A stretch of DNA of 64,000 nucleotides from an uncultured Fimbriimonadales bacterium (GTDB taxonomy: Bacteria; Armatimonadota; Fimbriimonadia; Fimbriimonadales; GBS-DC). The translations under genes were made by a program, and so were the position numbers. The notes under the pieces are model-generated. The model had not been told where the DNA came from. It saw nothing but the letters and a program-made list of their open reading frames with translations, and did not search any database. The stretch lies in the NCBI GenBank assembly GCA_964451985.1, contig CAYVKB010000002.1, positions 32,240 through 96,239 on the forward strand. The letters run 5' to 3'. Shown here piece after piece: positions 4,978 through 51,724 of the stretch (positions within the stretch are counted from its first letter, which is position 1; every line of letters begins with the position of its first letter).

Positions 4978-6279
4978 TTGGAGAGCTACAAAATCATCGG
5001 CGGAACACCGCTTACAGGCGCAGTGACGATTAGCGGGAGCAAAAATGCAGCGTTGGCACTGATGGCGGGCGCATTACTGATTGAAGGCGAGGTGATTCTG
5101 CACAACACGCCGCAGATTGAAGACGTGTTCACGATGGTCGCCCTGATGCAGGGGCTGGGTGTGCGGGCGGAATGGCGCGGCAATACCCTGTATCTAGATA
5201 CGCGCGAGCTGAGTCACGCGAAGCCGAACCCGCAGCTGGTGAACCGCATGCGCGCCTCGTTTTATATTTTTGGGCCGCTGCTCGCCCGACTGGGCTACGC
5301 GCGGATGCCCCATCCCGGTGGGTGCCAGATTGGCAGCCGACCCGTGAACTTCCACATCAATGGGCTGCGGGCACTGGGCGCACAGATTCATCAGAACGGC
5401 AACTGCTACACGGCGCAAACGCTGGGGCTGACAGGCGCGCGAATTTATCTGGATATGCCCAGCGCGGGTGCAACCCAGCAAATCATGACCGCTGCTGTGT
5501 ACGCTAATGGGCTGACCACCATTGAGAACGCTGCGATGGAACCTGAAGTGGTGAACCTCGCCGATTTCTTGAATGCGGCGGGCGCACGCATCGAGGGTGC
5601 AGGCACCAGCACGATTTATATCCAAGGCGTCTCTAAACTCACACCGCGTGCGGAGTTCTCCGTCATCCCCGACCGTCTGGAGGCAGGTACGTTCGCCTTA
5701 GCCGCCGCCATCACGCTGGGCGAGGTGACTTTGGAGAAAGTGCTGCCTGAACACCTGCACGCGTTGTTGGCGAAACTGCGCGAGGCGGGCGTGAGCATTA
5801 CCGAGCGCGAGACCAGTGTCACGATACGCGCCACAGAACGTCCCAAACCGCTCGACATCCGCACAATGCCCTATCCCGGCTTCCCTACCGATTTACAGCA
5901 GCCCATGTGCGCCCTGCTCGCCCTCGCCGACGGCGCATCGAAAGTGCTGGAGACCATCTACGAGAACCGCACGCAGCATGTGCCCGAATTGCAGAAGATG
6001 GGCGCAGACATCACCGCCGAGGGGCGCACTATCCTGATTCGCGGCGTGGAACGACTGAAAGGCGCGCGTGTGCGGGCGACCGACCTGCGCGGTGGGGCAG
6101 CCCTCGTTGTTGCCGCGCTCGCGGCGCACGGCGAGACCGAAATCGAGGAAATCAGCCATATCGACCGTGGTTACGAACTGTTGGAAGACAAACTGCGCGC
6201 GCTGGGCGCATCGATTCAACGCATCACACCCTACGCGCTTACCGCAACCCTGCACGAAGAGACAACACGCAAAACGTGA
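4978..6279 (+). CDS. murA: UDP-N-acetylglucosamine 1-carboxyvinyltransferase
   Basis: 433-aa ORF (TTG start, AAGGAGG upstream): GGTPLTGAVTISGSKNAAL...GGCQIGSRPV...RGGAALVVAALAA. Confidence 0.95.
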   Translation: MESYKIIGGTPLTGAVTISGSKNAALALMAGALLIEGEVILHNTPQIEDVFTMVALMQGLGVRAEWRGNTLYLDTRELSHAKPNPQLVNRMRASFYIFGPLLARLGYARMPHPGGCQIGSRPVNFHINGLRALGAQIHQNGNCYTAQTLGLTGARIYLDMPSAGATQQIMTAAVYANGLTTIENAAMEPEVVNLADFLNAAGARIEGAGTSTIYIQGVSKLTPRAEFSVIPDRLEAGTFALAAAITLGEVTLEKVLPEHLHALLAKLREAGVSITERETSVTIRATERPKPLDIRTMPYPGFPTDLQQPMCALLALADGASKVLETIYENRTQHVPELQKMGADITAEGRTILIRGVERLKGARVRATDLRGGAALVVAALAAHGETEIEEISHIDRGYELLEDKLRALGASIQRITPYALTATLHEETTRKT

Positions 6280-6281
6280 CT

Positions 6282-7289
6282 ATGTTCCGGCTGAACACTG
6301 AACTGGGCGTGGATTTGGGCACGGCGAACCTGCTGGTATACCAGCGAGGGCGTGGTATCGTGCTGCGTGAGCCGTCCGTGGTCGCCATCTCACAGCCCTC
6401 CGGCAAGGTGCTGGCGGTCGGCGAGGAAGCCCGCCTGATGTTGGGGCGCACGCCCGGTAACATCACCGCCGTCAAGCCTCTCGTGAACGGCGTGATAGCC
6501 GATTACACCATCACGCTGGAGATGTTGCGCTATGTGATTAATAAGATTCTCGGCAAGCGAAGGCTGTTCGCCCCGCGGATGCTGGTGTGCGTGCCTTCCA
6601 GTGCGACGGATGTGGAGCGCCGCGCTGTGCAACAAGCTGCCAAAGAGGCGGGCGCAGGCGAGGTGCATCTGATTGAAGAGCCGATGGCGGCGGCAATCGG
6701 CGCGGGACTGCCCATCAGCCAGCCGGGAGGCAACATGGTGGTGGACATCGGCGGTGGCACGACCGACATCGCTGTCATCTCGCTGGGCGGCATCGTGATT
6801 AGCCGCAGTATCCGCGTCGCGGGCAACAAGCTCGACGAGGCGATTATCCGCCACGTGCGCCACCGCTACAACTTGATGATTGGCGAGCGCACTGCGGAGG
6901 AAATCAAAATCCGCATCGGCTCAGCGTATCCGCTGCCGCAGGAACTCACGATGGAAGTGCGCGGGCGCGACCTGGTAGAAGGCTTACCTCGCACGGTGGT
7001 CATCCATTCGGAAGAGATTCGCGAGTCGCTGACGGAGCCGGTGAACCAGATTGTGGAGAAGGTACGCTCCGTGCTGGAAGAGACACCTCCCGAACTCGCT
7101 TCGGACATTATCGAGCGCGGAGTCGTGCTGACGGGCGGCGGCGCGCTGCTGCGTGGCTTTGATAAACTGCTTCAGCATGCGACGGGCATTCCCGTCTACA
7201 TCGCGGAAGACCCGCTCTCCTGCGTCGCGATTGGCACTGGGCGCGCCTTAGAAGAGATGGACGCGATTGTGAAAGCGGCACAGTATTAA
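6282..7289 (+). CDS. mreB: rod shape-determining protein MreB
   Basis: MFRLNTELGVDLGTANLLVY...DIGGGTTDIAVISLGG. The ORF-track entry 5907..7289 is an upstream extension that overlaps murA. The ATG at 6282 lies 2 nt after the murA stop. Confidence 0.95.
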   Translation: MFRLNTELGVDLGTANLLVYQRGRGIVLREPSVVAISQPSGKVLAVGEEARLMLGRTPGNITAVKPLVNGVIADYTITLEMLRYVINKILGKRRLFAPRMLVCVPSSATDVERRAVQQAAKEAGAGEVHLIEEPMAAAIGAGLPISQPGGNMVVDIGGGTTDIAVISLGGIVISRSIRVAGNKLDEAIIRHVRHRYNLMIGERTAEEIKIRIGSAYPLPQELTMEVRGRDLVEGLPRTVVIHSEEIRESLTEPVNQIVEKVRSVLEETPPELASDIIERGVVLTGGGALLRGFDKLLQHATGIPVYIAEDPLSCVAIGTGRALEEMDAIVKAAQY

Positions 7290-42653: not shown

Positions 42654-43553
42654 CTACACATCCAGCGAGGCAGAGGCAGGCACAATCTTCCCATGCTCGC
42701 GCGTAAGAAAATGCACTTCGCGGATGCCGTTGCGCAGTAGGTGTTCACGCGCCTCGTCCAAGCCGAAACCGACTTGAGTTGGGCGGTGGCTGTCGTCGCC
42801 GATGCAGAACATCACGCCCATTCGCGCACCCAGTCGCACTATCCAGTCGGCGGGGTAGGGCTGGTCTAAGCCTTTGCGCAAGGCGGAGGTGTTCACCTCC
42901 ACGCGCGCGCCTACGCTGCGAATCGCCTCCAACGCATATTCGGCGGCGCGGCGCACGCGCTCCGTTGATATCTGCTCCAGCATGCCCAAGCGCGCGGCTT
43001 TCAGGCGCACCAAATCCAGATGCCCAATCACCTCCGGGCGCACTGCTTGTGCCATCTCCGCCACCTTGTGATAATACCGTACAGCAACCTCCTCCATCCC
43101 ACCCACCTGTGCCATCATGTCGAGAAAGTTCTTATCAGAGTAGCCATCGATAGAGGCATCATGCAGGTAATGCACCGAACCGACCATATAGTCAAATTGA
43201 TACTTCTGGCGGTAGTGTTGCACCAGCTCCGCATAGCGGTCTTGCGGCACTACTTCGATTTCGAAACCGCGCAGAACGGTCAGTCGGTCGGCGAATTCGT
43301 CGGCGAGTTGACTAATCGTGTGCGCGTAGCGGTCGAAGATTTCATCTAAGGTCTGTGGCGTCCAGCCCCACTCAATCTCTTTAGGGTAGAGGAACTTGGC
43401 TTCTACACGGGGCATATGCTCCGCCACACCGAACACATGATAACCTGCCTGATGTGCCGCTTCCAGAATCTCGCGCAGGCTGCCCTCAGCGTGCTCACAG
43501 AACTCGCCGCTGTGCCCGCCATGCAGCGAGATCTTCCACTCCGCCTTTTGCAT
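42654..43553 (-). CDS. histidinol-phosphatase, PHP family (HisJ/HisK type)
   Basis: ISLHGGHSGEFCEHA...GVAEHMPR...GSVHYL...IGHLDL...DDSH. Confidence 0.85.
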   Translation of the reverse strand: MQKAEWKISLHGGHSGEFCEHAEGSLREILEAAHQAGYHVFGVAEHMPRVEAKFLYPKEIEWGWTPQTLDEIFDRYAHTISQLADEFADRLTVLRGFEIEVVPQDRYAELVQHYRQKYQFDYMVGSVHYLHDASIDGYSDKNFLDMMAQVGGMEEVAVRYYHKVAEMAQAVRPEVIGHLDLVRLKAARLGMLEQISTERVRRAAEYALEAIRSVGARVEVNTSALRKGLDQPYPADWIVRLGARMGVMFCIGDDSHRPTQVGFGLDEAREHLLRNGIREVHFLTREHGKIVPASASLDV

Positions 43554-43771
43554 AGCAGCGAAGAGTATACCCCGCCACCACTTCGAGCCAATTCCGCCAA
43601 ATTCCCGAATTCCCTGTCCGGTTTTGGACGAGTTTTGAGTCTATATGGGGTGGAATGCCTTGCGAAGGCGTTCCACAGGGCGAATTAGATAGAAATCAGC
43701 GGCGCTGGGCTTTGATCCTCCTTTCGACAGCGTCGCTTATTTTTCGAGTGGCTGGTGTATACTTATTCCTG

Positions 43772-44497
43772 ATGGACACAACAAAGCCTCTCATCGGCAT
43801 TACGGCGAACTGGAAGTTGGTGGACGAGATTAGCGGCAAAGTGAGTATGAACGATGGTTATGCGCGTTCGGTGGCTCGTGCGGGGGGCGTGGCGGTGCTG
43901 ATACCGCCCGGTGCGGATGCAGAGGCGTTGGCGGAACATCTGGACGGATTGCTAATTCCCGGCGGTGCGGATATTGACCCCAAATATTACGGTGAGGAGC
44001 AGCACCCAGAGGCGAAAATTGTGAACGCTCCGCGCTTTGAGGAGGAGTGGGCGTTGCTGCAGGCGTTCGAGGCGCGGCGTAAGCCGATTTTGGGCATCTG
44101 CTACGGCTGCCAGTTGCTGAATGTGTGGCGGGGCGGCGCGCTGTATCAGCACCTGCCCGATTTGCCTACTGTGACCCTCAAACACCAGCGCACCAGCTCC
44201 GACGAGCCGTTCCCGCGCCACTTTGTGGAGGTCGCCACCGATTCGAAGTTGGCGCAGATTGAGGGGCAAACGCGCTTCGAGACCGTGAGCGCGCACCATC
44301 AGGCAATACGCACGCTGGGCAAGGACTTAGTGATTACCGCCTACTCGCCCGACGGCGTGATAGAGGCGATTGAAGACCCTACACACCCGTTCTTTATCGG
44401 CGTGCAGTGGCATCCGGAACGCGACCCTGACGCTCCCGCCACGCGTCGCTTGTTCGAGGCTTTCGTTCAGGCGTGTGGGACACATCGGAGCGGCTAA
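43772..44497 (+). CDS. class I glutamine amidotransferase / peptidase C26 (gamma-glutamyl-GABA hydrolase-like)
   Basis: PLIGITAN...IPGGADIDPKYYGEE...GICYGCQLLNV...SAHHQAI...GVQWHPE. Confidence 0.85.
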   Translation: MDTTKPLIGITANWKLVDEISGKVSMNDGYARSVARAGGVAVLIPPGADAEALAEHLDGLLIPGGADIDPKYYGEEQHPEAKIVNAPRFEEEWALLQAFEARRKPILGICYGCQLLNVWRGGALYQHLPDLPTVTLKHQRTSSDEPFPRHFVEVATDSKLAQIEGQTRFETVSAHHQAIRTLGKDLVITAYSPDGVIEAIEDPTHPFFIGVQWHPERDPDAPATRRLFEAFVQACGTHRSG

Positions 44498-44595
44498 CGG
44501 CTGGGCTGTGCTGCCGTCGACTTGAGGTGCCGCACTCGCAGGGGTGACACGAGGAAAAGTGTCGGGGAACGAGTTTGGCAGCATTTGCTACATCG

Positions 44596-44940
44596 CTACT
44601 GGAGGGCGAGGCTCCCGTCGAGCCAACCCGTTCTTCGGTCTCACCGCGCGGCTTTCGGCACAACAGATGGCTCGGCAGGCGCCTCGCCCTCCAGCAGTGG
44701 TAAGGTTGCGCGATACGAGACAATAGGTTGGCTCGGCGGGAGCCTCTCCCTCCAGCAGTAGTAAGTTCGCGCGATAAGAGAAAATAGGTTGGCTCGGCAG
44801 GCGCCTCGCCCTCCAGCAGTAGTAAGGTCGCGCGATGTGAGAAAATAGGTTGGCTCGGCAGGCGCCTCGCCCTCCAGCAGTGGTAAGGTCGCGCGATGTG
44901 AGGAAATAGGTTGGCTTGGCGGGAGCCTTGCCCTCCATGG
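44596..44940. repeat. 61-nt tandem array (about 4.5 units) preceded by one inverted copy of its GC-rich core
   Basis: GGCTCGG starts at 44669, 44730, 44791, 44852 and 44913, an exact 61-nt period. Unit: GGTTGGCTCGGCAGGCGCCTCGCCCTCCAGCAGTAGTAAGGTCGCGCGATGTGAGAAAATA. Inverted core at 44596-44628. Confidence 0.9.
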
Positions 44941-45050
44941 GCTGTTGTGTGCTTTGAGGTGATTCTGGGGGAAACCTGTATTTTCGCTGTGAGGCGTGCG
45001 CAGACCTCTGCCGAAATATCCTTTACAACCCACAAGGGGAGGTGGTACAC

Positions 45051-45140
45051 ATGTTCTCGGCGATTGCCATCGCGCTTGCCGTCGCCTGCATAGTGGGAGC
45101 TTATAGCCTACTGCGCGATGCGCTTGATGAAGTATGGTAA
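45051..45140 (+). CDS. candidate 29-aa hydrophobic peptide
   Basis: MFSAIAIALAVACIVGAYSLLRDALDEVW, preceded by AAGGGGAGGTGG about 6 nt upstream. Below the ORF-track size cutoff. Confidence 0.25.
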   Translation: MFSAIAIALAVACIVGAYSLLRDALDEVW

Positions 45141-45178
45141 AGTGGCACGGGCAATCTTGTCTGTGCGTGATTGCTACG

Positions 45179-45457
45179 CTAAAGCGGTTCAACAAAAATC
45201 AGCCCTGCCAGCTGCGCGTCGAGGGCGACGGTAGACATGCCAATTCGCACGGCATACGCGGGGAAGCGTTGCTGCACGTAGACTGTTGCTCCGGGCATGA
45301 TGCCCAGCACACTCAGCTTGCGCCAGTGCCCATCGTGGTCATGGACGACCCGTACGATGCGTGCCTGTGCGCCCTTTGGTAGCTGCGTCAGCGGGACGGC
45401 TTGTGCGCCGTCTCCTGACGCTTGCGCCGTGCCCAGTTCACAAGGCTTTGTATCCAT
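45179..45457 (-). CDS. feoA: FeoA-family protein
   Basis: VPLTQLPKGAQARIVRV...LGIMPGATVYVQQRFP...VRIGMSTVALD, an SH3-like FeoA pattern. Confidence 0.8.
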   Translation of the reverse strand: MDTKPCELGTAQASGDGAQAVPLTQLPKGAQARIVRVVHDHDGHWRKLSVLGIMPGATVYVQQRFPAYAVRIGMSTVALDAQLAGLIFVEPL

Positions 45458-45594
45458 TTCGGCTCCTGCGGTTGCTCATAGCCACAGCGCGGGCACTTCA
45501 CGAGTCGGCAGCCCCCAAACGCGGCGCAACCGCGACAGGCTTTCTGGATGCCCTCCTCAGTCAGTTCGTGCCCGCAGAAACTGCAACGTATCAC
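45388..45594 (-). CDS. Cys-rich zinc-ribbon protein in the feo operon
   Basis: Own reading: GTG at 45594 overlaps the feoB stop (GTGA). (M)IRCSFCGHELTEEGIQKACRGCAAFGGCRLVKCPRCGYEQP, i.e. three CxxC pairs plus one extra Cys. Overlaps feoA by 70 nt out of frame. Confidence 0.5.
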   Translation of the reverse strand: MIRCSFCGHELTEEGIQKACRGCAAFGGCRLVKCPRCGYEQPQEPKWIQSLVNWARRKRQETAHKPSR

Positions 45595-47048
45595 AACTGT
45601 ACCCCCCACGCGCTCAGCAGTCGGCTTAGTGCGAAGCCCACCCCAAACGCCGTTGTCATCGCAATCACGAACATCGCCAACGCCGTCTTCCAGCCTCGCT
45701 CCTTGATTGTCACCAGAAACTGTGCCACGCACGGCACAAACAGCGTTAGCACCACCGCAACCACCAGAATATCGTTGCCCGTTAGTAAGCCCTTCTCCTG
45801 CAGGTCGTACAGCCCCGCAGCACCGTAGTCGCGTCGGAAGAAGCCGAATAGGAACGCCACGCTTGCCTCGCTTGGCAGCCCCAGTAGCTGGGTTAGTGGC
45901 GCAAGCGCACGCAACGCCCAATCGAACAGCCCCACGAGCTGCCCTATCCAGATTAGCACGCTGGCAATAAGGAACAGCGGCAGCACCTCCATAAAGTACC
46001 ACTGCAATCGTGCCAGCGTTTTGATAAGCACGTTGCTTAGGCTAGGCAAGCGCATCGGTGGGATTTCCATGTAGAAGGGCATGGCGCGTCCGGGCAGCAC
46101 CTGTGCCGCCAGCCAACCCGACACCAAAAATACACCCGCAATCACGCCCGCCCAGATGCCCAGCCCCAGCGGATACTGCGCCAACAACGCCAGTACCACG
46201 CCCAACTGCGCCGAGCAGGGGATAGTCAGCGTCAGCAGAAAAGTGGTGATAATGCGCTCGCGGCGGGTTTCTAAAACGCGCGTGACCACTGTCGCCATCG
46301 TGTCGCAGCCGAACCCCAGCACAATCGGAATCACCGCCCGCCCGTTCAGCCCCATCGCCTTAAACACGCGGTCTATCAGCATCGCGAGGCGCGGTAGGTA
46401 CCCTGTATCCTCCAGAATCGCGAACACCAGAAAGAAGAAGGTCACAATCGGCAGAATCAGCGCAATCGCGTAGGTCACACCCAGCGTCCACACACCGTAC
46501 TCGCCCACCAGCAGCTCCTGAATCGACTGCCACGGGACGATACGGCGCACGAGGCTCTCCACGAACGGGTTGATGGTCTCGCCGAACAGGTTCTCTTCAA
46601 TCAGCCCGACCACTGTGCCCGCGCCGAACACGCCCACGAACTGATACAGCCCGAAATACAGCACCAGCGCAAGGATGGGGAAGCCCGTCCACGGGTTCAT
46701 GCTCAGCCAGCCTGCCCACTCCGCGAGGGTCTGCGGGCGTGGAGACTTGGTGGTATGGGTTACCTGCGCGGCGATTTGCTGACTCCAGAGTTGTCGCTGC
46801 TGCTCGATTTGCCATGCCAGTGGGGTCTCGCCGGCGCGTTCGAGTTGCTCTTTGATGTGGCGGATTTGCTCCAGCGTATACGCGCTTTCTTGCGCCTGCA
46901 CTTCGTCCCAGATTTCGGCATCGTCTTGCAGCAGCAGCAGGGCGATGGTGCGGGGGCTGAGGGCATAGTCGCCGCGCAGTCGCTCGCCGATTTGCTCAAG
47001 GGCTTGCTCAATCGCGATGGGGTAGGTCGGTGTCGGCGAGGCGGTCAT
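45591..47048 (-). CDS. feoB: ferrous iron transporter FeoB, helical plus membrane part
   Basis: 485 aa: YPIAIEQALEQI...LEDTGYLPRLA...GFGCDTMA...FVPCVAQF. Lacks a G domain. Confidence 0.9.
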   Translation of the reverse strand: MTASPTPTYPIAIEQALEQIGERLRGDYALSPRTIALLLLQDDAEIWDEVQAQESAYTLEQIRHIKEQLERAGETPLAWQIEQQRQLWSQQIAAQVTHTTKSPRPQTLAEWAGWLSMNPWTGFPILALVLYFGLYQFVGVFGAGTVVGLIEENLFGETINPFVESLVRRIVPWQSIQELLVGEYGVWTLGVTYAIALILPIVTFFFLVFAILEDTGYLPRLAMLIDRVFKAMGLNGRAVIPIVLGFGCDTMATVVTRVLETRRERIITTFLLTLTIPCSAQLGVVLALLAQYPLGLGIWAGVIAGVFLVSGWLAAQVLPGRAMPFYMEIPPMRLPSLSNVLIKTLARLQWYFMEVLPLFLIASVLIWIGQLVGLFDWALRALAPLTQLLGLPSEASVAFLFGFFRRDYGAAGLYDLQEKGLLTGNDILVVAVVLTLFVPCVAQFLVTIKERGWKTALAMFVIAMTTAFGVGFALSRLLSAWGVQL

Positions 47049-47577
47049 AAATCAGCTCCTTCAGGGCATCGATTCCTTGTCCCGACAGCCCTATCGTCGG
47101 CAGCACGGGCGCGCCCAACTGCTGCTGCAGCGCATCAATCTGGATATTCAGCCCTGCACGCTCCAGCTCGTCCATCATGTTCAGCACCAGCACAACAGGC
47201 GCACCCGTCTCCATCAGCTGCGCGGTAAGAGGCAACATCCGCGCGAGGTTCTTGGCGTCAATTACATGCAACACCAAATTGGGACGGTCGCGCAACAGGA
47301 TGCGCCGCGCCACGCGCTCCTCGTCGGTAATCGGCGAAAGCGAATACATGCCCGGCGAGTCGATAATCACAAACTCGCGCCCGCGATAGCGCATCAGCCC
47401 GCGTGAAACCTCGACCGTCGTACCCGGATAGTTGGAGACCGTGACATAGCGTCCTGTGAGTTTATGGAACAGCACGCTTTTGCCCACGTTCGGGCTGCCC
47501 ACAATCAGCACGGTCGGTTTCGCGTCGGCGCGCGCCTGCCTGCGCATGGATTCCTCAGCAGTGGCAACAGTTGGCAT
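47008..47577 (-). CDS. feoB: FeoB N-terminal GTPase domain as a separate ORF
   Basis: GSPNVGKS (G1), NYPGTTVE (G2), DSPGMYS (G3), LNMMD (G4). Ends 41 nt after the start of the membrane ORF, in a different frame. Confidence 0.9.
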   Translation of the reverse strand: MPTVATAEESMRRQARADAKPTVLIVGSPNVGKSVLFHKLTGRYVTVSNYPGTTVEVSRGLMRYRGREFVIIDSPGMYSLSPITDEERVARRILLRDRPNLVLHVIDAKNLARMLPLTAQLMETGAPVVLVLNMMDELERAGLNIQIDALQQQLGAPVLPTIGLSGQGIDALKELIYDRLADTDLPHRD

Positions 47578-47585
47578 TTTCCATA

Positions 47586-47615
47586 AATATACCCTTTAGC
47601 GTGGCTAAATATCAA
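47586..47615 (-). promoter_or_regulatory. feo promoter candidate TTGATA-18-TATATT, with the -10 box 8 nt from the ATG
   Basis: Minus-strand TTGATA (47610-47615) and TATATT (47586-47591). ATG at 47577. No SD sequence. Confidence 0.45.
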
Positions 47616-47644
47616 GGGGGGGGGTTGACACCCCACACCTTGAT
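47611..47644. promoter_or_regulatory. imperfect 34-bp palindrome with a G9 tract, overlapping both divergent -35 boxes
   Basis: ATCAAGG-ggg-GGGG-TTGACA-CCCC-aca-CCTTGAT. The G run spans 47616-47624. Confidence 0.4.
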
Positions 47645-47655
47645 TGGAGTATAAT
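47625..47655 (+). promoter_or_regulatory. fur-family gene promoter candidate TTGACA-19-TATAAT
   Basis: TTGACA 47625-47630, TATAAT 47650-47655, AGGAG RBS before ATG 47692. The spacer is long. Confidence 0.4.
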
Positions 47656-47691
47656 TCGCTTTAGAGATTTATTTTCCATAGGAGCGAGACG

Positions 47692-48126
47692 ATGAACCGA
47701 CTGACCATCGGACTGAAACAAGCAGGGCTGCGCCTCACCCCGCAGCGCGTGGCAATTTGCAAGATACTGGCGGAAAGCAAAGACCACCCAACCGCGATGA
47801 TGATTTATCACCAACTACTACCTCAGTTTCCCACGCTGAGCTTAGCGACGGTGTATAAGACGCTGAATGTGTTGAAATCGATGGGGCTGGTGCATACACT
47901 GGGCGACGCGGGCGACGGCGCGGAACATTTCGACGCCGACCTAACACCGCACATTAACCTGGTATGCACCAAGTGCCACAGCGTTATGGATTTTGATGAG
48001 CACCTGATTTATTCGGTGCAGCAGGCGGTGGCGGAGCGGTCGGGCTACGAGATTCAAGGCGCGCGGATTGTGTACTACGGCTTGTGTCCGCAATGCCGCG
48101 CCTTGAGCGCGAAGGAGAGCGCGTGA
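47692..48126 (+). CDS. Fur-family metalloregulator
   Basis: LRLTPQRVAICKILAESKDHPTA...ATVYKTLN...HINLVCTKCHSV...GLCPQC (two CxxC pairs). Confidence 0.85.
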   Translation: MNRLTIGLKQAGLRLTPQRVAICKILAESKDHPTAMMIYHQLLPQFPTLSLATVYKTLNVLKSMGLVHTLGDAGDGAEHFDADLTPHINLVCTKCHSVMDFDEHLIYSVQQAVAERSGYEIQGARIVYYGLCPQCRALSAKESA

Positions 48127-50423
48127 TGGGTGTGATGCGCTACTTGCGGAAACGCAGGGCGGAAGCCGACTCGTGCGCGGACGAGATGGCGAAAGTCGCA
48201 ATCGCCACACGCGGGCTACAGCGCGTGCGCTACCGCTACAAGGAAGACTCCGTGGAGTTGGAGTATGATCCCCACACGCTGAGTGCGGAGGACGCCCAGC
48301 GCGCTGCCGAGCCGCTGCTGCGCGAGTTGGGAGTGCGTATCCCCACGTGTGGACTGCGCAACCCCGAATCGGGCGTGTGCGAGGCGTGCCCCAGCGTGGC
48401 GCAGCACGGCAAACGCTGGCACATAAACGGCGTTGCCTACCGCGCGAGTTTCGACGGCGAAACACTGACGATTGAACAGGAAGGCGCGCCTCCAGAGCCG
48501 ACTGACCGCATCCTGCGCCGCGTGAAAGCGATCGAGCGTCCTGCGCCGTTGTGGCAGAGCCGCGCGTTTTGGGAACCGATACTCGCGGCGCTGACCCTGC
48601 TGATGATAATAGTGGGCGGGCTGTTGCGCTGGCAAGGTCTCACAGGCGCGGCGAACGGGGCGTATGCGATTGCCTACTTGGCAGGGGGTTACTTCGGCGT
48701 AGTCGACGGCTATCAGACCCTGCGCGAGCGACGGCTGGATGTGAACTTCCTAATGATTGCTGCTGCGATTGGCGCAGCAATTGTCGGCGAAGCCCCCGAA
48801 GGCGCGACGCTGCTGTTCCTGTTCTCGCTGTCCAACACGCTGCAAAACTACGCCCTTGCCCGCAGCCGTCGCGCTGTGCGTGCGCTAATGGCGTTGCAGC
48901 CTGAAGTCGCCACGCGCCTCACGCCCGCTGGCACGGAGACTGTGCCTGTAGAGGAACTGCAAGTAGGCGACTGCGTGCTGACCCGCCCCGGCGAACGTAT
49001 CCCCACCGACGGCGTCGTGCTGCAAGGCGATTCGCACGTCGACCAGTCGCCGATTACAGGTGAAAGCGCACCTGTGCACAAAACCGTCGGCGACTCTGTG
49101 TTCGCGGGCACAGTAAACGGCAACGGCGTGCTGGAGATTGAAGTGCGCGCGCCCGCCTCTGAGACGCTGCTGCAGCGGATTATGCAACTGGTAGAGCAAG
49201 CGCAGGAGCAGAAAGCGCGCACGCAACGCTGGCTGGAGCGGTTCGAGCAGCGGTATGCACTTGCAGTGATTGGCGGCGCGGCGGCGGTCGCGCTGGGGCT
49301 GCCCCTCGTCGGCTGGAGCTTCCCCGACGCTTTCTATCGTGCTATGACGCTGCTGGTGGTCGCCTCGCCCTGCGCGCTGGTGATTAGCACGCCCGCTACC
49401 CTGCTGAGCGCAATCGCCAACGCCGCCCGACGCGGCGTGCTGTTCAAAGGTGGCGAGCCGATGGAGCGACTGGCGACCATTCAATCTGTCGCCATCGACA
49501 AAACAGGCACGCTGACCGAAGGCAAGCTGGAGTTCACGGATATGGTATCACTGCCCGACGCTTCGGAATCGGAGGCGTGGCAGATGATTATCGATGTGGA
49601 GTCGCGTTCAGAGCATCCGCTGGCGCAGGCGTTGGTGCAGGCGGCGCAAGCGCGTGGCTACGAAGCCCGCCCCGTCGAGCGCGTGGAAGCTGTGCCAGGC
49701 AAAGGCGTGATTGCGACCCTGCCTGACGGCGTAGAAGCGCGCATCGGCAACCTTCGCCTATTTGAGGATGTGGGCGTGCCTGAATCGGTGCAGCAGACCG
49801 TGCAGGCGTTGCGCGAGGCGGGCAAGACGGCGATGATTGTGTGGGCAGGTGGGCGGTATCTGGCGGTTGCCGCCGCCGCCGACAAGTTGCGCCCTGAAGC
49901 CCCGCGTGCAGTAGCGCAACTGCACGCGCTGGGCATTCCCTGCGTGGCGATGCTTACAGGTGATGCGGAGCCTATTGCTCGCGCCGTCGCCCAGCAAACG
50001 GGTGTTGACCGTGTATACGCTGACCTGTTGCCCCACGAGAAGCTGGAGGTGCTGGGCAAACTGAGTGCAGAATGCGGCGTCACGGCGATGGTAGGCGACG
50101 GTGTGAACGATGCCCCCGCCCTCGCCGCCGCCGAAGTCGGAATCGCGATGGGTGCAGGTACCGACGTTGCCTTAGAAACCGCCGACGTCGCCCTCGTGGG
50201 CAACGACCTCACGAACCTGCCCTATGCGATTGCCCTCAGCCGCCACGCGATGCACGTACTCAAGCAGAACCTCATCTTCGCAACAGGCGTGATTGTGGTG
50301 CTGGTCATCCTCACCTTCGTAGCGAACCTGCGCCTGCCGCTGGGTGTCGTGGGGCACGAGGGCAGCACACTGATTGTCGTGATGAACGGACTGCGCCTGC
50401 TGTGGTATCGCCCGCGCGAGTAG
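48126..50423 (+). CDS. P1B-4-type heavy-metal (Co/Fe/Zn-class) transporting ATPase
   Basis: SPC in TM6 (VVASPCALVISTP), HEGSTLIVVMNGLRLL in the last TM, DKTGTLT, GDGVNDAPAL. ATG 48126 overlaps the fur-family stop (TGATG). Confidence 0.9.
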   Translation: MGVMRYLRKRRAEADSCADEMAKVAIATRGLQRVRYRYKEDSVELEYDPHTLSAEDAQRAAEPLLRELGVRIPTCGLRNPESGVCEACPSVAQHGKRWHINGVAYRASFDGETLTIEQEGAPPEPTDRILRRVKAIERPAPLWQSRAFWEPILAALTLLMIIVGGLLRWQGLTGAANGAYAIAYLAGGYFGVVDGYQTLRERRLDVNFLMIAAAIGAAIVGEAPEGATLLFLFSLSNTLQNYALARSRRAVRALMALQPEVATRLTPAGTETVPVEELQVGDCVLTRPGERIPTDGVVLQGDSHVDQSPITGESAPVHKTVGDSVFAGTVNGNGVLEIEVRAPASETLLQRIMQLVEQAQEQKARTQRWLERFEQRYALAVIGGAAAVALGLPLVGWSFPDAFYRAMTLLVVASPCALVISTPATLLSAIANAARRGVLFKGGEPMERLATIQSVAIDKTGTLTEGKLEFTDMVSLPDASESEAWQMIIDVESRSEHPLAQALVQAAQARGYEARPVERVEAVPGKGVIATLPDGVEARIGNLRLFEDVGVPESVQQTVQALREAGKTAMIVWAGGRYLAVAAAADKLRPEAPRAVAQLHALGIPCVAMLTGDAEPIARAVAQQTGVDRVYADLLPHEKLEVLGKLSAECGVTAMVGDGVNDAPALAAAEVGIAMGAGTDVALETADVALVGNDLTNLPYAIALSRHAMHVLKQNLIFATGVIVVLVILTFVANLRLPLGVVGHEGSTLIVVMNGLRLLWYRPRE

Positions 50424-50441
50424 GCGGTAGAATCAGGGTAT

Positions 50442-50623
50442 ATGGTTCAACATCGGATTGTGAGGATGGATCCGCACACTGAGGCGCAAGCGTGGCGCGA
50501 TTTCCACGCCAGCTTTTGATACCCGTGCCTCTGCTGCGCGGCGACCCCGATGTGCCCATCAACCTGCAAGCGGTGTACAGAGCGTCTACGCTCGCGTCCG
50601 CTGCCGTTCGTTCCCACGAATAG
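50442..50623 (+). pseudogene. heavily deleted DUF4058-family remnant
   Basis: MVQHRIVRMDPHTEAQAWRDFHASF, then a stop. A C-terminal-like segment IPVPLLRGDPDVPINLQAVY lies in another frame. Nucleotide-level similarity to 13537-13600. Confidence 0.5.
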
Positions 50624-50637
50624 CGCTTGAGGTTACT

Positions 50638-50715
50638 CGCCTCGGCTCGGAATGACAGGCACTCTTCGTGTAAGAGCCATATCATTCCGAACAAAGCGAA
50701 AAATAAGGACGCATC
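50638..50715. repeat. short inverted-repeat element (CGCCTCGGCTCGGAATGAC ... ATCATTCCGAACAAAGCGAAAAATAAGGACGCATC)
   Basis: Arms TCGGAATGA/TCATTCCGA are separated by about 25 nt. Same family as 14141, 29008 and 34656. The right end reaches the GH5 stop codon. Confidence 0.45.
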
Positions 50716-51724
50716 ACATCTCCCGCAGCAGCTCCAACATCGCCCTGTCCAGCTTGTACCCACGCCAATTTTCGTAGGGCACATCGGCGCGGTCGCTCTC
50801 GAGGACGCCGAACGATCCGCGGAAGTTCCACAGCGCCCAGCCCCAGCCCGCCTGCTTCCAGAGTTCGAGCAGGTCGCGCATCCATGCCAGCACAACGGCG
50901 TGGGGCGTATGCTTGTATGCGCCGAACTCGCCCACCATCACGCCCACGCCTTTTTGCTCGAGCGCTTTCCAGCGGGCGTAATAGGCGTCCCACAGGCGTT
51001 GCTTGTCCCAGACTACATCGCCCTCGCGCAGGGGATACTCTGTAGGCGGCTGCCAGCGGTCTGCACCTTGCACCCACTCGGCGCGATAGTGCGTTAATCG
51101 GAATGGCTGATACCCGCGCGTCGCTTGCGCCACATTCAGAGGGAGCAGCTCCTCGCTGGGGGTGCCGCCCCAATCGCGCCCGTCGCACACAATCAGCCGC
51201 TTCGAGTCCTCTTTGCGAATCGCCTCCACCACACGCTCCACGACCTTGCGATGCGACTCGGCGTCCACATTCGCCGGCTCGTTGAAGAGGTTGAAACTCA
51301 GTTGGCGGTTCGAGATGCCCTTATAACGCTTGGTGAACTGTGTCCAGTGGTGAACGCAGATTTTCTGCGCTTCCTCGTCCTTCCACAGGTTCAGCCGTTC
51401 AGGGGGCGACGCCACCGTGTAGCCAGGCGCGCGATGGAAGTTGAGTTGAACGTGCAGTTTGTATTGCTCCCCGAAGCGCACGGCGCGGTCAATTTCGCGC
51501 AGTTCCTCCTCGCGCAGGCGGTAGGGATTGTCGGTGTCCGTCCAGATGCGGTAGTCCATCGGTAGGCGCACGAAGTTGAATCCCAGCTCAGCAATCCACT
51601 CGAAGTCCCGCTCGTCGAATCGCGTGTTGCTCCACTCCAGCCCGAATTTATTGAGCAGGTTGAATCCGCGCCAGCGGGGCAGCTTGCGTGGCGTCGGCTC
51701 TGGCAAACTCGCGCGTTGTGGCAT
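50714..51724 (-). CDS. glycoside hydrolase family 5
   Basis: NFVRLPMDY...LNFHRAPGY...FNLFNEPA (catalytic NEP)...GEFG. Confidence 0.85.
   Translation of the reverse strand: MPQRASLPEPTPRKLPRWRGFNLLNKFGLEWSNTRFDERDFEWIAELGFNFVRLPMDYRIWTDTDNPYRLREEELREIDRAVRFGEQYKLHVQLNFHRAPGYTVASPPERLNLWKDEEAQKICVHHWTQFTKRYKGISNRQLSFNLFNEPANVDAESHRKVVERVVEAIRKEDSKRLIVCDGRDWGGTPSEELLPLNVAQATRGYQPFRLTHYRAEWVQGADRWQPPTEYPLREGDVVWDKQRLWDAYYARWKALEQKGVGVMVGEFGAYKHTPHAVVLAWMRDLLELWKQAGWGWALWNFRGSFGVLESDRADVPYENWRGYKLDRAMLELLREM

Follow-up and report, generated by a model that had tools for sequence, protein, structure and literature searches.

A predicted peroxide-responsive operon pairing a PerR-like repressor with a P1B-4 metal pump in a Fimbriimonadales genome

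An SPC motif in M4 and an HEGxT motif in M6 define the P1B-4 group of metal-transporting ATPases, whose substrates are Co, Zn, Fe, Ni or Cd (PMC8880997). P1B-4 pumps that export Fe2+ are regulated by Fur and/or PerR (PMC7762939); among them, PfeT is derepressed by H2O2 via PerR (PMC9993123), and PmtA exports both Fe2+ and Co2+ (PMC7012047). Here we describe a locus that encodes members of these two protein classes side by side, on a 64-kb stretch of Fimbriimonadales (Armatimonadota) DNA with 59.6% G+C (hereafter "the window"), from an organism known from metagenome assemblies. Control of P1B-4 iron pumps by PerR is described from a few Firmicutes, in which regulator and pump are not known to be linked genes. 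In the window, the gene of a PerR-like Fur-family regulator (144 amino acids (aa); positions 47692-48126, forward strand) overlaps that of a P1B-4 ATPase (765 aa; 48126-50423, forward strand). We consider it reasonably probable that the two form a self-contained operon of a thermophilic Fimbriimonadales genome, in which a PerR-type repressor would repress its own gene along with that of the pump, peroxide would lift the repression, and the pump would export Fe2+. What we establish are the identities of the genes, the junction between them, the conservation of the cassette, the conserved operators in front of it, and a covariation between these operators and one residue of the regulator.

The stop codon of the regulator (TGA, 48124-48126) and the start codon of the ATPase (ATG, 48126-48128) share one base. 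The resulting TGATG at 48124-48128 had been correctly placed in a preliminary description of this DNA; an in-frame GTG at 48123 is an alternative ATPase start, with a GTGA overlap. A ribosome-binding site (RBS), AAGGAG (48112-48117), lies within the last codons of the regulator (K-E-S-A), 8 nt 5' of the ATPase ATG. As read from the sequence, the whole coupling junction, from AAGGAG to GTGATG, occupies 48112-48128 of the forward strand, and it is conserved in relatives. A species-level scan (one genome per species) yielded 80 loci with relatives of the regulator, from Armatimonadota and Chloroflexota (Anaerolineae, Thermoflexus). An ATPase homologue follows downstream on the same strand in 61 of these 80 loci, while 14 lack the pump and 5 are uninformative, being contig ends. 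Among the 61 pairs, the ATPase starts at or before the regulator stop in 33, after a gap of 0-27 nt in 20 and after a gap of 28-130 nt in 5; the remaining 3 have a methyltransferase gene inserted. Since a tight junction (NTGA, TGATG or a gap of at most 27 nt) recurs in 53 of the 61 pair-carrying loci, it is not a product of chance. Four homologues (57-91% identity) that were looked up independently also showed the Fur-then-ATPase pair, in neighbourhoods that were otherwise unrelated. Co-translation of a sensor and its pump had been called uncommon in the preliminary description, but tight coupling is the rule in this clade, and the pair is a conserved cassette of two phyla.

Insertions favour the borders of this cassette. 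In the three species with an interrupted pair (L030, L032 and L034, at about 5400-6590), the gene between regulator and ATPase encodes a DNA methyltransferase of the N6/N4 type that carries a RAMA domain. At the other end of the window's operon, a consensus scan returned no terminator 3' of the ATPase.

The regulator belongs to the Fur family, as the preliminary description had it: the Pfam FUR profile matches residues 11-129 (E = 1.6e-28; profile positions 2-121 of 121), and 26 solved Fur-family relatives were found at E <= 1e-3. That description had left its place among Fur, Zur, PerR and Nur to be settled, and profiles, structures and residues all put it closest to PerR, if short of the curated PerR cut-offs. 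PerR profiles give the best NCBIfam scores (135.8 bits for clostridial PerR, NF052545, and 96.4 bits for NF047406, versus 81.7 for Fur and 48 for Zur), and the top matches in the PDB are PerR of B. subtilis (2fe3, 91.6 bits) and of S. pyogenes (4i7h, 89.5 bits), versus at most 70.3 bits for Fur. The key residues are H32, K56 in the recognition helix, H79, D81, H87, N89, C92/C95, H96, D100 and C132/C135. In an alignment of 30 homologues H32, H79, H87, C92, C95, H96, D100, C132 and C135 are invariant, and D81 and N89 are conserved in at least 90%. C92-x2-C95 and C132-x2-C135 are aligned to the pairs C96/C99 and C136/C139 in PerR of B. subtilis and are predicted to form the same structural zinc site. 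Four of the five regulatory-site ligands of that protein (H37, D85, H91 and D104) are present as H32, D81, H87 and D100, and the fifth (H93) is replaced by N89, a role that the invariant H79 or H96 might fill; the pair of histidines that is oxidised by peroxide in B. subtilis PerR, H37 and H91, is matched by H32 and H87. D100, within the motif MDFDE, provides the Asp, rather than Glu, that is characteristic of PerR at the D104 position, an equivalence backed by the alignment with 2fe3. An Asp at this position separates PerR and Irr from Fur, Zur, Mur and Nur (PMC8638967).

The neighbours of related regulators point in the same direction. In 10 of the 14 pump-less loci the gene after the regulator encodes a 1-Cys peroxiredoxin, two of these loci also having a rubrerythrin gene upstream, and in 2 of the 14 it encodes a rubrerythrin, in one case with KatG upstream. 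Pump-less and pump-linked regulators interleave in a neighbour-joining tree. Residues and sister-orthologue neighbours together suggest peroxide as the signal, and the regulator appears to be a PerR-like protein that is more likely to sense peroxide than an excess of iron.

We examined the DNA in front of the operon by phylogenetic footprinting of 28 Armatimonadota loci, aligned over the 150 nt that precede the regulator; beyond this stretch their upstream DNA is unrelated. The footprint reads TTGACA, 18 nt, TGGAGTATAAT, TCGCTTc, GGAAAAy-n-rTTTTCC, a, then GGAG and ATG. In the window it corresponds to a sigma-70-type promoter on the forward strand (47625-47655), with a -35 element TTGACA at 47625-47630 and a -10 element TATAAT at 47650-47655. 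The spacer between them is 19 nt here and 18 nt in relatives, and a consensus promoter scan that allowed only spacers of 16-18 nt overlooked this promoter. Directly after the -10 element, over the likely transcription start, lies a 7-1-7 palindrome of the Fur-family type, recognised from the footprint and a weight matrix and here called box B (AGAGATT-T-ATTTTCC, 47663-47677; clade consensus GGAAAAy-n-rTTTTCC). A weaker second 7-1-7 site, of the type GGAGTAT-A-ATTCGCT, lies 17 bp upstream of box B; this box A (GGAGTATAATTCGCT, 47646-47660) overlaps the -10 element and is the second-best 7-1-7 match in most Armatimonadota loci. The near-invariance of TGGAG before TATAAT across the 28 loci is explained by this overlap of box A with the -10 element. 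The RBS of the regulator, AGGAG (47680-47684, forward strand), was read from the sequence, and its GGAG is kept at the same position in related loci.

Scored with a weight matrix made from the 28 sites, box B reaches 22.2 bits and is the sole match above 12.2 bits in the 64-kb window, compared with a maximum of 17.4 bits in 20 shuffles. No further operator site was found in the window, where the next-best match (12.2 bits) falls within the shuffle range, and 250 kb of related loci contained a single weaker match (15.7 bits), inside an open reading frame (ORF). The boxes extend over both the -10 element and the likely start of transcription, a position from which the bound regulator would be expected to repress rather than to activate.

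The same tandem arrangement, with boxes 17 bp apart, occurs in the Anaerolineae loci. There the boxes over the -10 element are of the classical PerR type, several of them perfect TTATAATnATTATAA. The difference in half-site follows one residue of the regulator, at the position of N61 in B. subtilis PerR. An Asn at this position, as in Anaerolineae, always occurs with TTAtAAT or TTAgAAT half-sites, and a Lys, found in 28 Armatimonadota and 9 Thermoflexus loci, always occurs with half-sites of the form GGAxAAT. We regard this covariation as the strongest non-experimental evidence in favour of each regulator binding the boxes before its own gene. In these sequence-predicted pairs of regulator and operator, one residue (Lys or Asn) goes along with a switch of two bases in the half-site (GG or TT), which extends the known Asn/Arg rule separating PerR boxes from Fur boxes.

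The pump encoded by the downstream gene scores above the TIGR01525 and TIGR01512 cut-offs. Of the solved structures, the closest to it is sCoaT (7qbz; E = 4.6e-136, 458 bits), which aligns over residues 45-675 with residues 152-762 of the window protein, compared with E = 1e-102 and 348 bits for ZntA. The P1B-4 core is encoded at 48570-50423 of the forward strand, and its motifs are a GG kink (residues 187-188), E225, TGES (311), SPC (414-416; 49365-49373), DKTGT (458), GDGVNDAP (657) and HEGST (744-748; 50355-50369). SPC, HEGST and the positions of E120 and the GG kink, by which the sCoaT paper delimits the subclass (PMC8880997), all align with sCoaT, and the core motifs, SPC and HEGST among them, are invariant in 18 homologues; assignment to the P1B-4 group from these two motifs, already proposed in the preliminary description, is borne out. 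Helix MA starts near residue 149; a crude hydropathy scan gave six hydrophobic stretches, and the count of eight helices comes from the sCoaT alignment.

A different cargo would follow if the locus combined a Zur- or Nur-like regulator with an exporter of Zn, Cd or Co. Homologues of the pump are annotated as "Cd2+/Zn2+-exporting ATPase" or "Zinc-transporting ATPase", the TIGR01512 profile whose cut-off is passed is that of the "cadmium family", and sCoaT moves Zn2+ and Cd2+ in vitro (PMC8880997). However, the annotation names are generic orthology-group labels, and the pump has SPC and HEGST, not the CPC/Lys/Asp signature of Zn pumps, with 458 bits to sCoaT versus 348 to ZntA. The regulator, for its part, scores 48 bits with Zur versus 136 with PerR and has Asp, not Glu, at the discriminating position, and we consider a Zur- or Nur-type system highly improbable.

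Ahead of the core, the ATPase has a cytoplasmic N-terminal region of about 148 aa (48126-48569, forward strand), in which a degenerate HMA-like repeat (residues 5-70) is followed by a Cys loop and then by a half rich in beta structure. Four cysteines, C17, C75, C85 and C88, are invariant in an alignment of 56 homologues; the Cys cluster itself, CGLRNPESGVCEACP, spans residues 75-89 (48348-48392). The region has no Pfam match, HMA giving none at E <= 1. An AlphaFold model of the region (predicted local distance difference test score, pLDDT, 81.7; predicted template modelling score, pTM, 0.72) consists of a helix-strand-strand-helix unit at residues 17-75, the Cys loop, a short helix and four strands, and a Foldseek search of the PDB with this model returned no match at E <= 1e-3. 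Profile alignment with hhalign paired residues 5-70 with residues 4-69 of B. subtilis CopZ (E = 1.5e-4, probability 51%, the CopZ sequence having been entered by hand), with C17 falling on the second Cys of the CxxC and the YDP motif matched. For the second half (residues 66-140, including C85-x2-C88), the alignment with the same CopZ sequence was weak (E = 0.03, probability 1.7%), and the two halves matched each other at E = 0.0021, both of which are suggestive only. In a 161-aa homologue (P0246) the second half is more clearly an HMA-like repeat with CxxC, and Thermoflexus orthologues do not have the N-terminal region. An exhaustive phmmer search with the N-terminal 148 aa against 1.8 billion representatives gave only 6 matches, mostly fragments; the divergence of the region is too rapid for searches that start from one sequence.

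Taken as a whole, the region may be described as a pair of degenerate HMA-like repeats with a likely four-Cys metal site in common, and the four invariant cysteines probably bind metal, in a structural or regulatory role. The preliminary description, which had noted an HMA-like segment without CxxC and a separate Cys cluster, was reasonable on this point: residues 5-70 are weakly HMA-like when compared with CopZ. P1B-4 members with extended N-termini exist and have been left uncharacterised (PMC8880997), and the window pump, with its four-Cys region, belongs to this "extended N-terminus" group, which the structural literature has left open. In one Chloroflexota locus (L081, 5442-5966) the regulator precedes a 174-aa ORF equivalent to the Cys-bearing N-terminal region on its own, and there is no pump core in the surrounding 5 kb; this ORF is either a stand-alone domain or a disrupted gene.

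These elements can be assembled into a proposed mechanism. Transcription would begin at the sigma-70-type promoter, under the control of tandem 7-1-7 operators lying over its -10 element and transcription start. The reduced repressor, carrying Fe2+ or Mn2+ as well as the structural Zn held by its two CxxC pairs, would bind these boxes as dimers and hold both genes low, amounting to negative autoregulation. Peroxide would oxidise the Fe site at H32 and H87 and bring the repressor off the DNA, an effect that loss of the regulatory metal would share. A single mRNA would then give both regulator and pump, the RBS of the pump lying in the last codons of the regulator, and the pump, a member of the PfeT/PmtA/CoaT class, would export cytoplasmic Fe2+ (possibly Co2+ or Zn2+), leaving less Fenton chemistry in the cell.

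Several points weigh against this mechanism, the first group of which concerns the regulator. It scores below all NCBIfam PerR equivalog cut-offs (135.8 versus 180 bits for NF052545, 96.4 versus 200 bits for NF047406), it has N89 in place of H93 of B. subtilis PerR, and K56 replaces the recognition-helix Asn (N61) that is typical of PerR. In keeping with the latter, the operator half-site in the window resembles GGAAAAT, not the TTATAAT of the classical PerR box. The case for peroxide sensing draws on residues and on the neighbours of orthologues in other genomes, not in this one. As for the operon itself, the position of the transcription start is a likely one, obtained by prediction, and the translational coupling of regulator and pump that we propose derives solely from the geometry of their junction. 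The cargo is not readable from the sequence, and Fe2+ is suggested by characterised P1B-4 pumps under PerR control. We know of no sequence signature that separates Fe from Co specificity. Finally, an efflux pump under a repressor that is active when metal-loaded would be paradoxical if the signal were metal excess.

One alternative is a direct sensor of metal excess, a protein that uses the Fur scaffold in the reverse of its normal sense, represses in its apo form and is released by Fe2+, Co2+ or Zn2+, making the pump inducible by its own substrate. Placing the sensor in the operon is the usual layout for substrate-inducible efflux, as in nmtR-ctpJ and coaR-coaT, and the cassette is kept as a stand-alone unit in many genomes. 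The replacement of H93 by N89, together with the invariant and clade-specific H79 and H96, could be read as an altered metal site. Fur-family proteins normally bind DNA when metal-loaded, however, and the same Asn is found in S. pyogenes PerR, a genuine peroxide sensor (4i7h; HVNVVC versus HINLVC in the alignment). Asp100, H32 and H87 are, moreover, hallmarks of PerR (PMC8638967), and orthologues of the same clade adjoin peroxiredoxin, rubrerythrin or KatG genes and use classical PerR boxes. We judge a metal-excess sensor to be distinctly unlikely, and prefer peroxide as the signal because metal excess would make control of efflux by a holo-repressor paradoxical, which is an argument and not a test.

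The operon lies next to feo genes, which are transcribed from the opposite strand, a divergent arrangement that had been recognised from the outset. The feoB promoter (47576-47615, reverse strand) comprises a -35 element TTGATA (47615-47610), a spacer of 18 nt and a -10 element TATATT (47591-47586), matched at 10 of 12 positions in the promoter scan, and is directly followed by one perfect GGAAAAT half-site (47582-47576). This block (TTGATA, 18 nt, TATATT, then tATGGAAAATGCC) is conserved, half-site included, in the window and in three further feo-linked loci (L006, L015 and L016), whether it stands 9 bp or 4.5 kb from the regulator promoter. The preliminary description proposed that one metalloregulator, acting from the intergenic region between them, could switch feo and the ATPase in opposite directions; the switch would follow iron status. 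The -35 hexamers of the two promoters stand back to back, 9 bp apart. Two copies of the 10-mer ATTTTCCATA, in which the half-site of the operator is contained, stand in this region (47576-47585 and 47671-47680) because the feoB half-site repeats that of the operator, and the GGAAAAT on the feoB strand is placed after its -10 element just as box B is, in all four feo-linked loci. In addition, Fur of B. subtilis is at once a repressor of uptake and an activator of pfeT (PMC9993123).

These features are outweighed, in our assessment, by the evidence on the other side. The feoB promoter has a half-site only: there is no second half-site to complete an operator, and the operator matrix gives none of its 17-mers a score above 0 bits. 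Adjacency to feoB is limited to the closest relatives, with 2 of the 80 scanned species (L015 and L016) and two extra loci (L001 and L006). Between feoB and the regulator lie 114 nt in the window and 272 nt in L015; L006 has a 1.5-kb repeat array there and L016/L017 a 4.5-kb three-gene island, and both promoters are conserved even where they are far apart. Because both stay intact when separated by kilobases, the feoB and regulator promoters appear to be independent modules. Measured from the feoB start, boxes A and B fall at roughly -65 to -100, which is not the position of a repressor, and one holo-repressor acting on both promoters would move them in the same direction, not reciprocally. 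Nor is the palindrome at 47611-47644, which spans both -35 elements, conserved. Reciprocal control of feo and pump from the intergenic region is therefore unlikely on these grounds; the feo operon has its own promoter and is most likely not under this repressor, and we take the position of the cassette beside feo to be a local accident. A shared intergenic region does not, as a caution, imply shared regulation, since the promoters here look like modules parted by an insertion hot spot.

The palindrome just mentioned (ATCAAGGGGGGGGGT / ACCCCACACCTTGAT) had been considered as an operator and was rejected: its arms consist of the feoB -35 element and part of the spacer of the regulator promoter, and their pairing is lost in L006, L015 and L016. 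It is best seen as an accident of promoter juxtaposition. A run of nine G (47616-47624) lies exactly between the back-to-back -35 hexamers. The run is G8 in L003 and G9 in L001 and L005, and the contigs of L002 and L004 end inside it, a variation that reflects either length polymorphism or homopolymer sequencing error. A further motif, TTTCGAACACCCTC, stands 5-12 nt upstream of the -35 element of regulator and feoB promoters in L006, L015, L018, L033, L034, L036 and L038 and is absent from the window (0 matches at up to one mismatch); it may mark the ends of repeat arrays or be a binding site. As for the DNA that separates feoB from the regulator elsewhere, the "489-aa gene" of L006 (5440-6970) was discarded as a gene, being a 1.5-kb tandem-repeat array that is open in all six frames, and the island of L016/L017 (L016, 850-4950) contains ORFs that by eye resemble HerA, NurA and DndC/PAPS reductase.

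The feo genes themselves are more fragmented than the "feoAB" of the preliminary description, which was right about Feo identity: there are four ORFs, with feoB split in two and a small Cys-rich ORF added. All four are on the reverse strand. The G-domain ORF of feoB (189 aa, 47008-47577) matches Pfam FeoB_N (E = 8.2e-57) and positions 1-152 of the TIGR00437 profile. The membrane ORF (485 aa, 45591-47048) matches Pfam FeoB_Cyto, Gate and FeoB_C, and feoA (92 aa, 45179-45457) matches Pfam FeoA (E = 5.4e-15). The two feoB ORFs overlap by 41 nt in different frames; since this split is kept in L001, L006 and L015, it is not an assembly error. Owing to the split, neither feoB ORF alone reaches the TIGR00437 cut-off, and all Feo parts (G-domain, Gate, FeoB_C and FeoA) are present. 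The likely start of feoB is Met11 (47547), giving 179 aa with a GAGGA RBS, in agreement with gene calls of 179 aa in L001 and L006. The control region described earlier as 114 nt long has that length when measured from 47577, but is 144 nt long if feoB starts at Met11.

Between feoB and feoA, a 68-aa Cys-rich ORF (CSFC...CRGC...C...CPRC; 45388-45594, reverse strand) begins with a GTG that overlaps the feoB stop (GTGA) and runs 70 nt into annotated feoA. It was missed by public gene calls, has counterparts of 87-88% protein identity in L006 and L015, and might serve Feo as an accessory protein of the zinc-ribbon type. Between a peptidase C26 gene and feoA, positions 44668-44937 of the window hold 4.4 copies of a 61-bp tandem repeat (90% matches); an Rfam scan of 43500-51000 gave nothing beyond a spurious microRNA match on this repeat.

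The half-site at feoB and the N-terminal cysteines of the pump could also be joined with the proposed operon into a two-layer safety valve against peroxide and iron. In such a scheme, a repressor reading GG through Lys56 would act on transcription, the clade-specific four-Cys N-terminus, on its degenerate double-HMA scaffold, would serve as a post-translational metal or redox sensor that relieves autoinhibition of the pump, and in the feo-linked lineage the GGAAAAT half-site at the feoB transcription start would place feoB under weak control. We find this elaboration doubtful and offer it only as a speculative extension of the simpler peroxide-derepressed operon.

The closest described systems to this simpler operon are PerR/Fur-PfeT of B. 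subtilis, PerR-PmtA of Streptococcus and Fur/PerR-FrvA of Listeria, which share with it both protein classes, a promoter box of the 7-1-7 type and an expected outcome of iron export under peroxide (PMC7762939, PMC9993123, PMC7012047). The resemblance extends to the H-x-N-x-x-C motif, which the window regulator shares with S. pyogenes PerR. The reading head and its operator differ, however, with Asn and TTATAAT boxes in Firmicute PerR systems and Lys and a GGAAAAT half-site here. In contrast to the Firmicute arrangement, the genes also form one operon with overlapping stop and start, conserved in two phyla and known here from sequence alone. Firmicute P1B-4 pumps, to our knowledge, do not have the 148-aa four-Cys N-terminal region.

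Other described systems share single aspects of the locus. The P1B-4 archetype sCoaT (Sulfitobacter sp. NAS14-1; 7qbz and 7qc0) has in common with the window pump the GG kink of MA/MB, E120 (E225 here), SPC in M4, D369 (D458 here) and HEGST in M6 with its counter-ion His (H744 here) (PMC8880997). Its tail comprises only about 47 residues with no heavy-metal-binding domain, whereas the window pump falls into the "extended N-terminus" group of P1B-4 ATPases. In Synechocystis, the PerR-like and self-repressing Slr1738 is encoded beside its main target, the peroxiredoxin sll1621 (PMC3293774), which parallels the sister loci with a 1-Cys peroxiredoxin. Slr1738 and sll1621 are divergent and the target is a peroxiredoxin, while the target in the window would be a co-directional, coupled metal pump. 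NmtR-CtpJ and CoaR-CoaT, finally, resemble the window in having a P1B-4 pump beside its own dedicated regulator. Cis-encoded sensors of the NmtR and CoaR type belong to the ArsR/SmtB and MerR families and respond to the transported metal.

A PerR-like regulator in one operon with a P1B-4 pump was not found in the literature that we searched, which is not proof of its absence. The pairing of PerR and P1B-4 pump as a compact operon in about 60 species of Armatimonadota and Chloroflexota concerns two poorly studied phyla, many of whose members are known only from metagenome-assembled genomes. Compared with PfeT, PmtA and FrvA, the locus stands apart in its cis-encoded and coupled layout, its pair of operator and reading head, its four-Cys N-terminus and the phyla in which it occurs. 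In it a known regulatory link takes on a new genetic layout; the locus is not a new kind of system, and it extends current concepts of PerR-controlled metal efflux without changing them.

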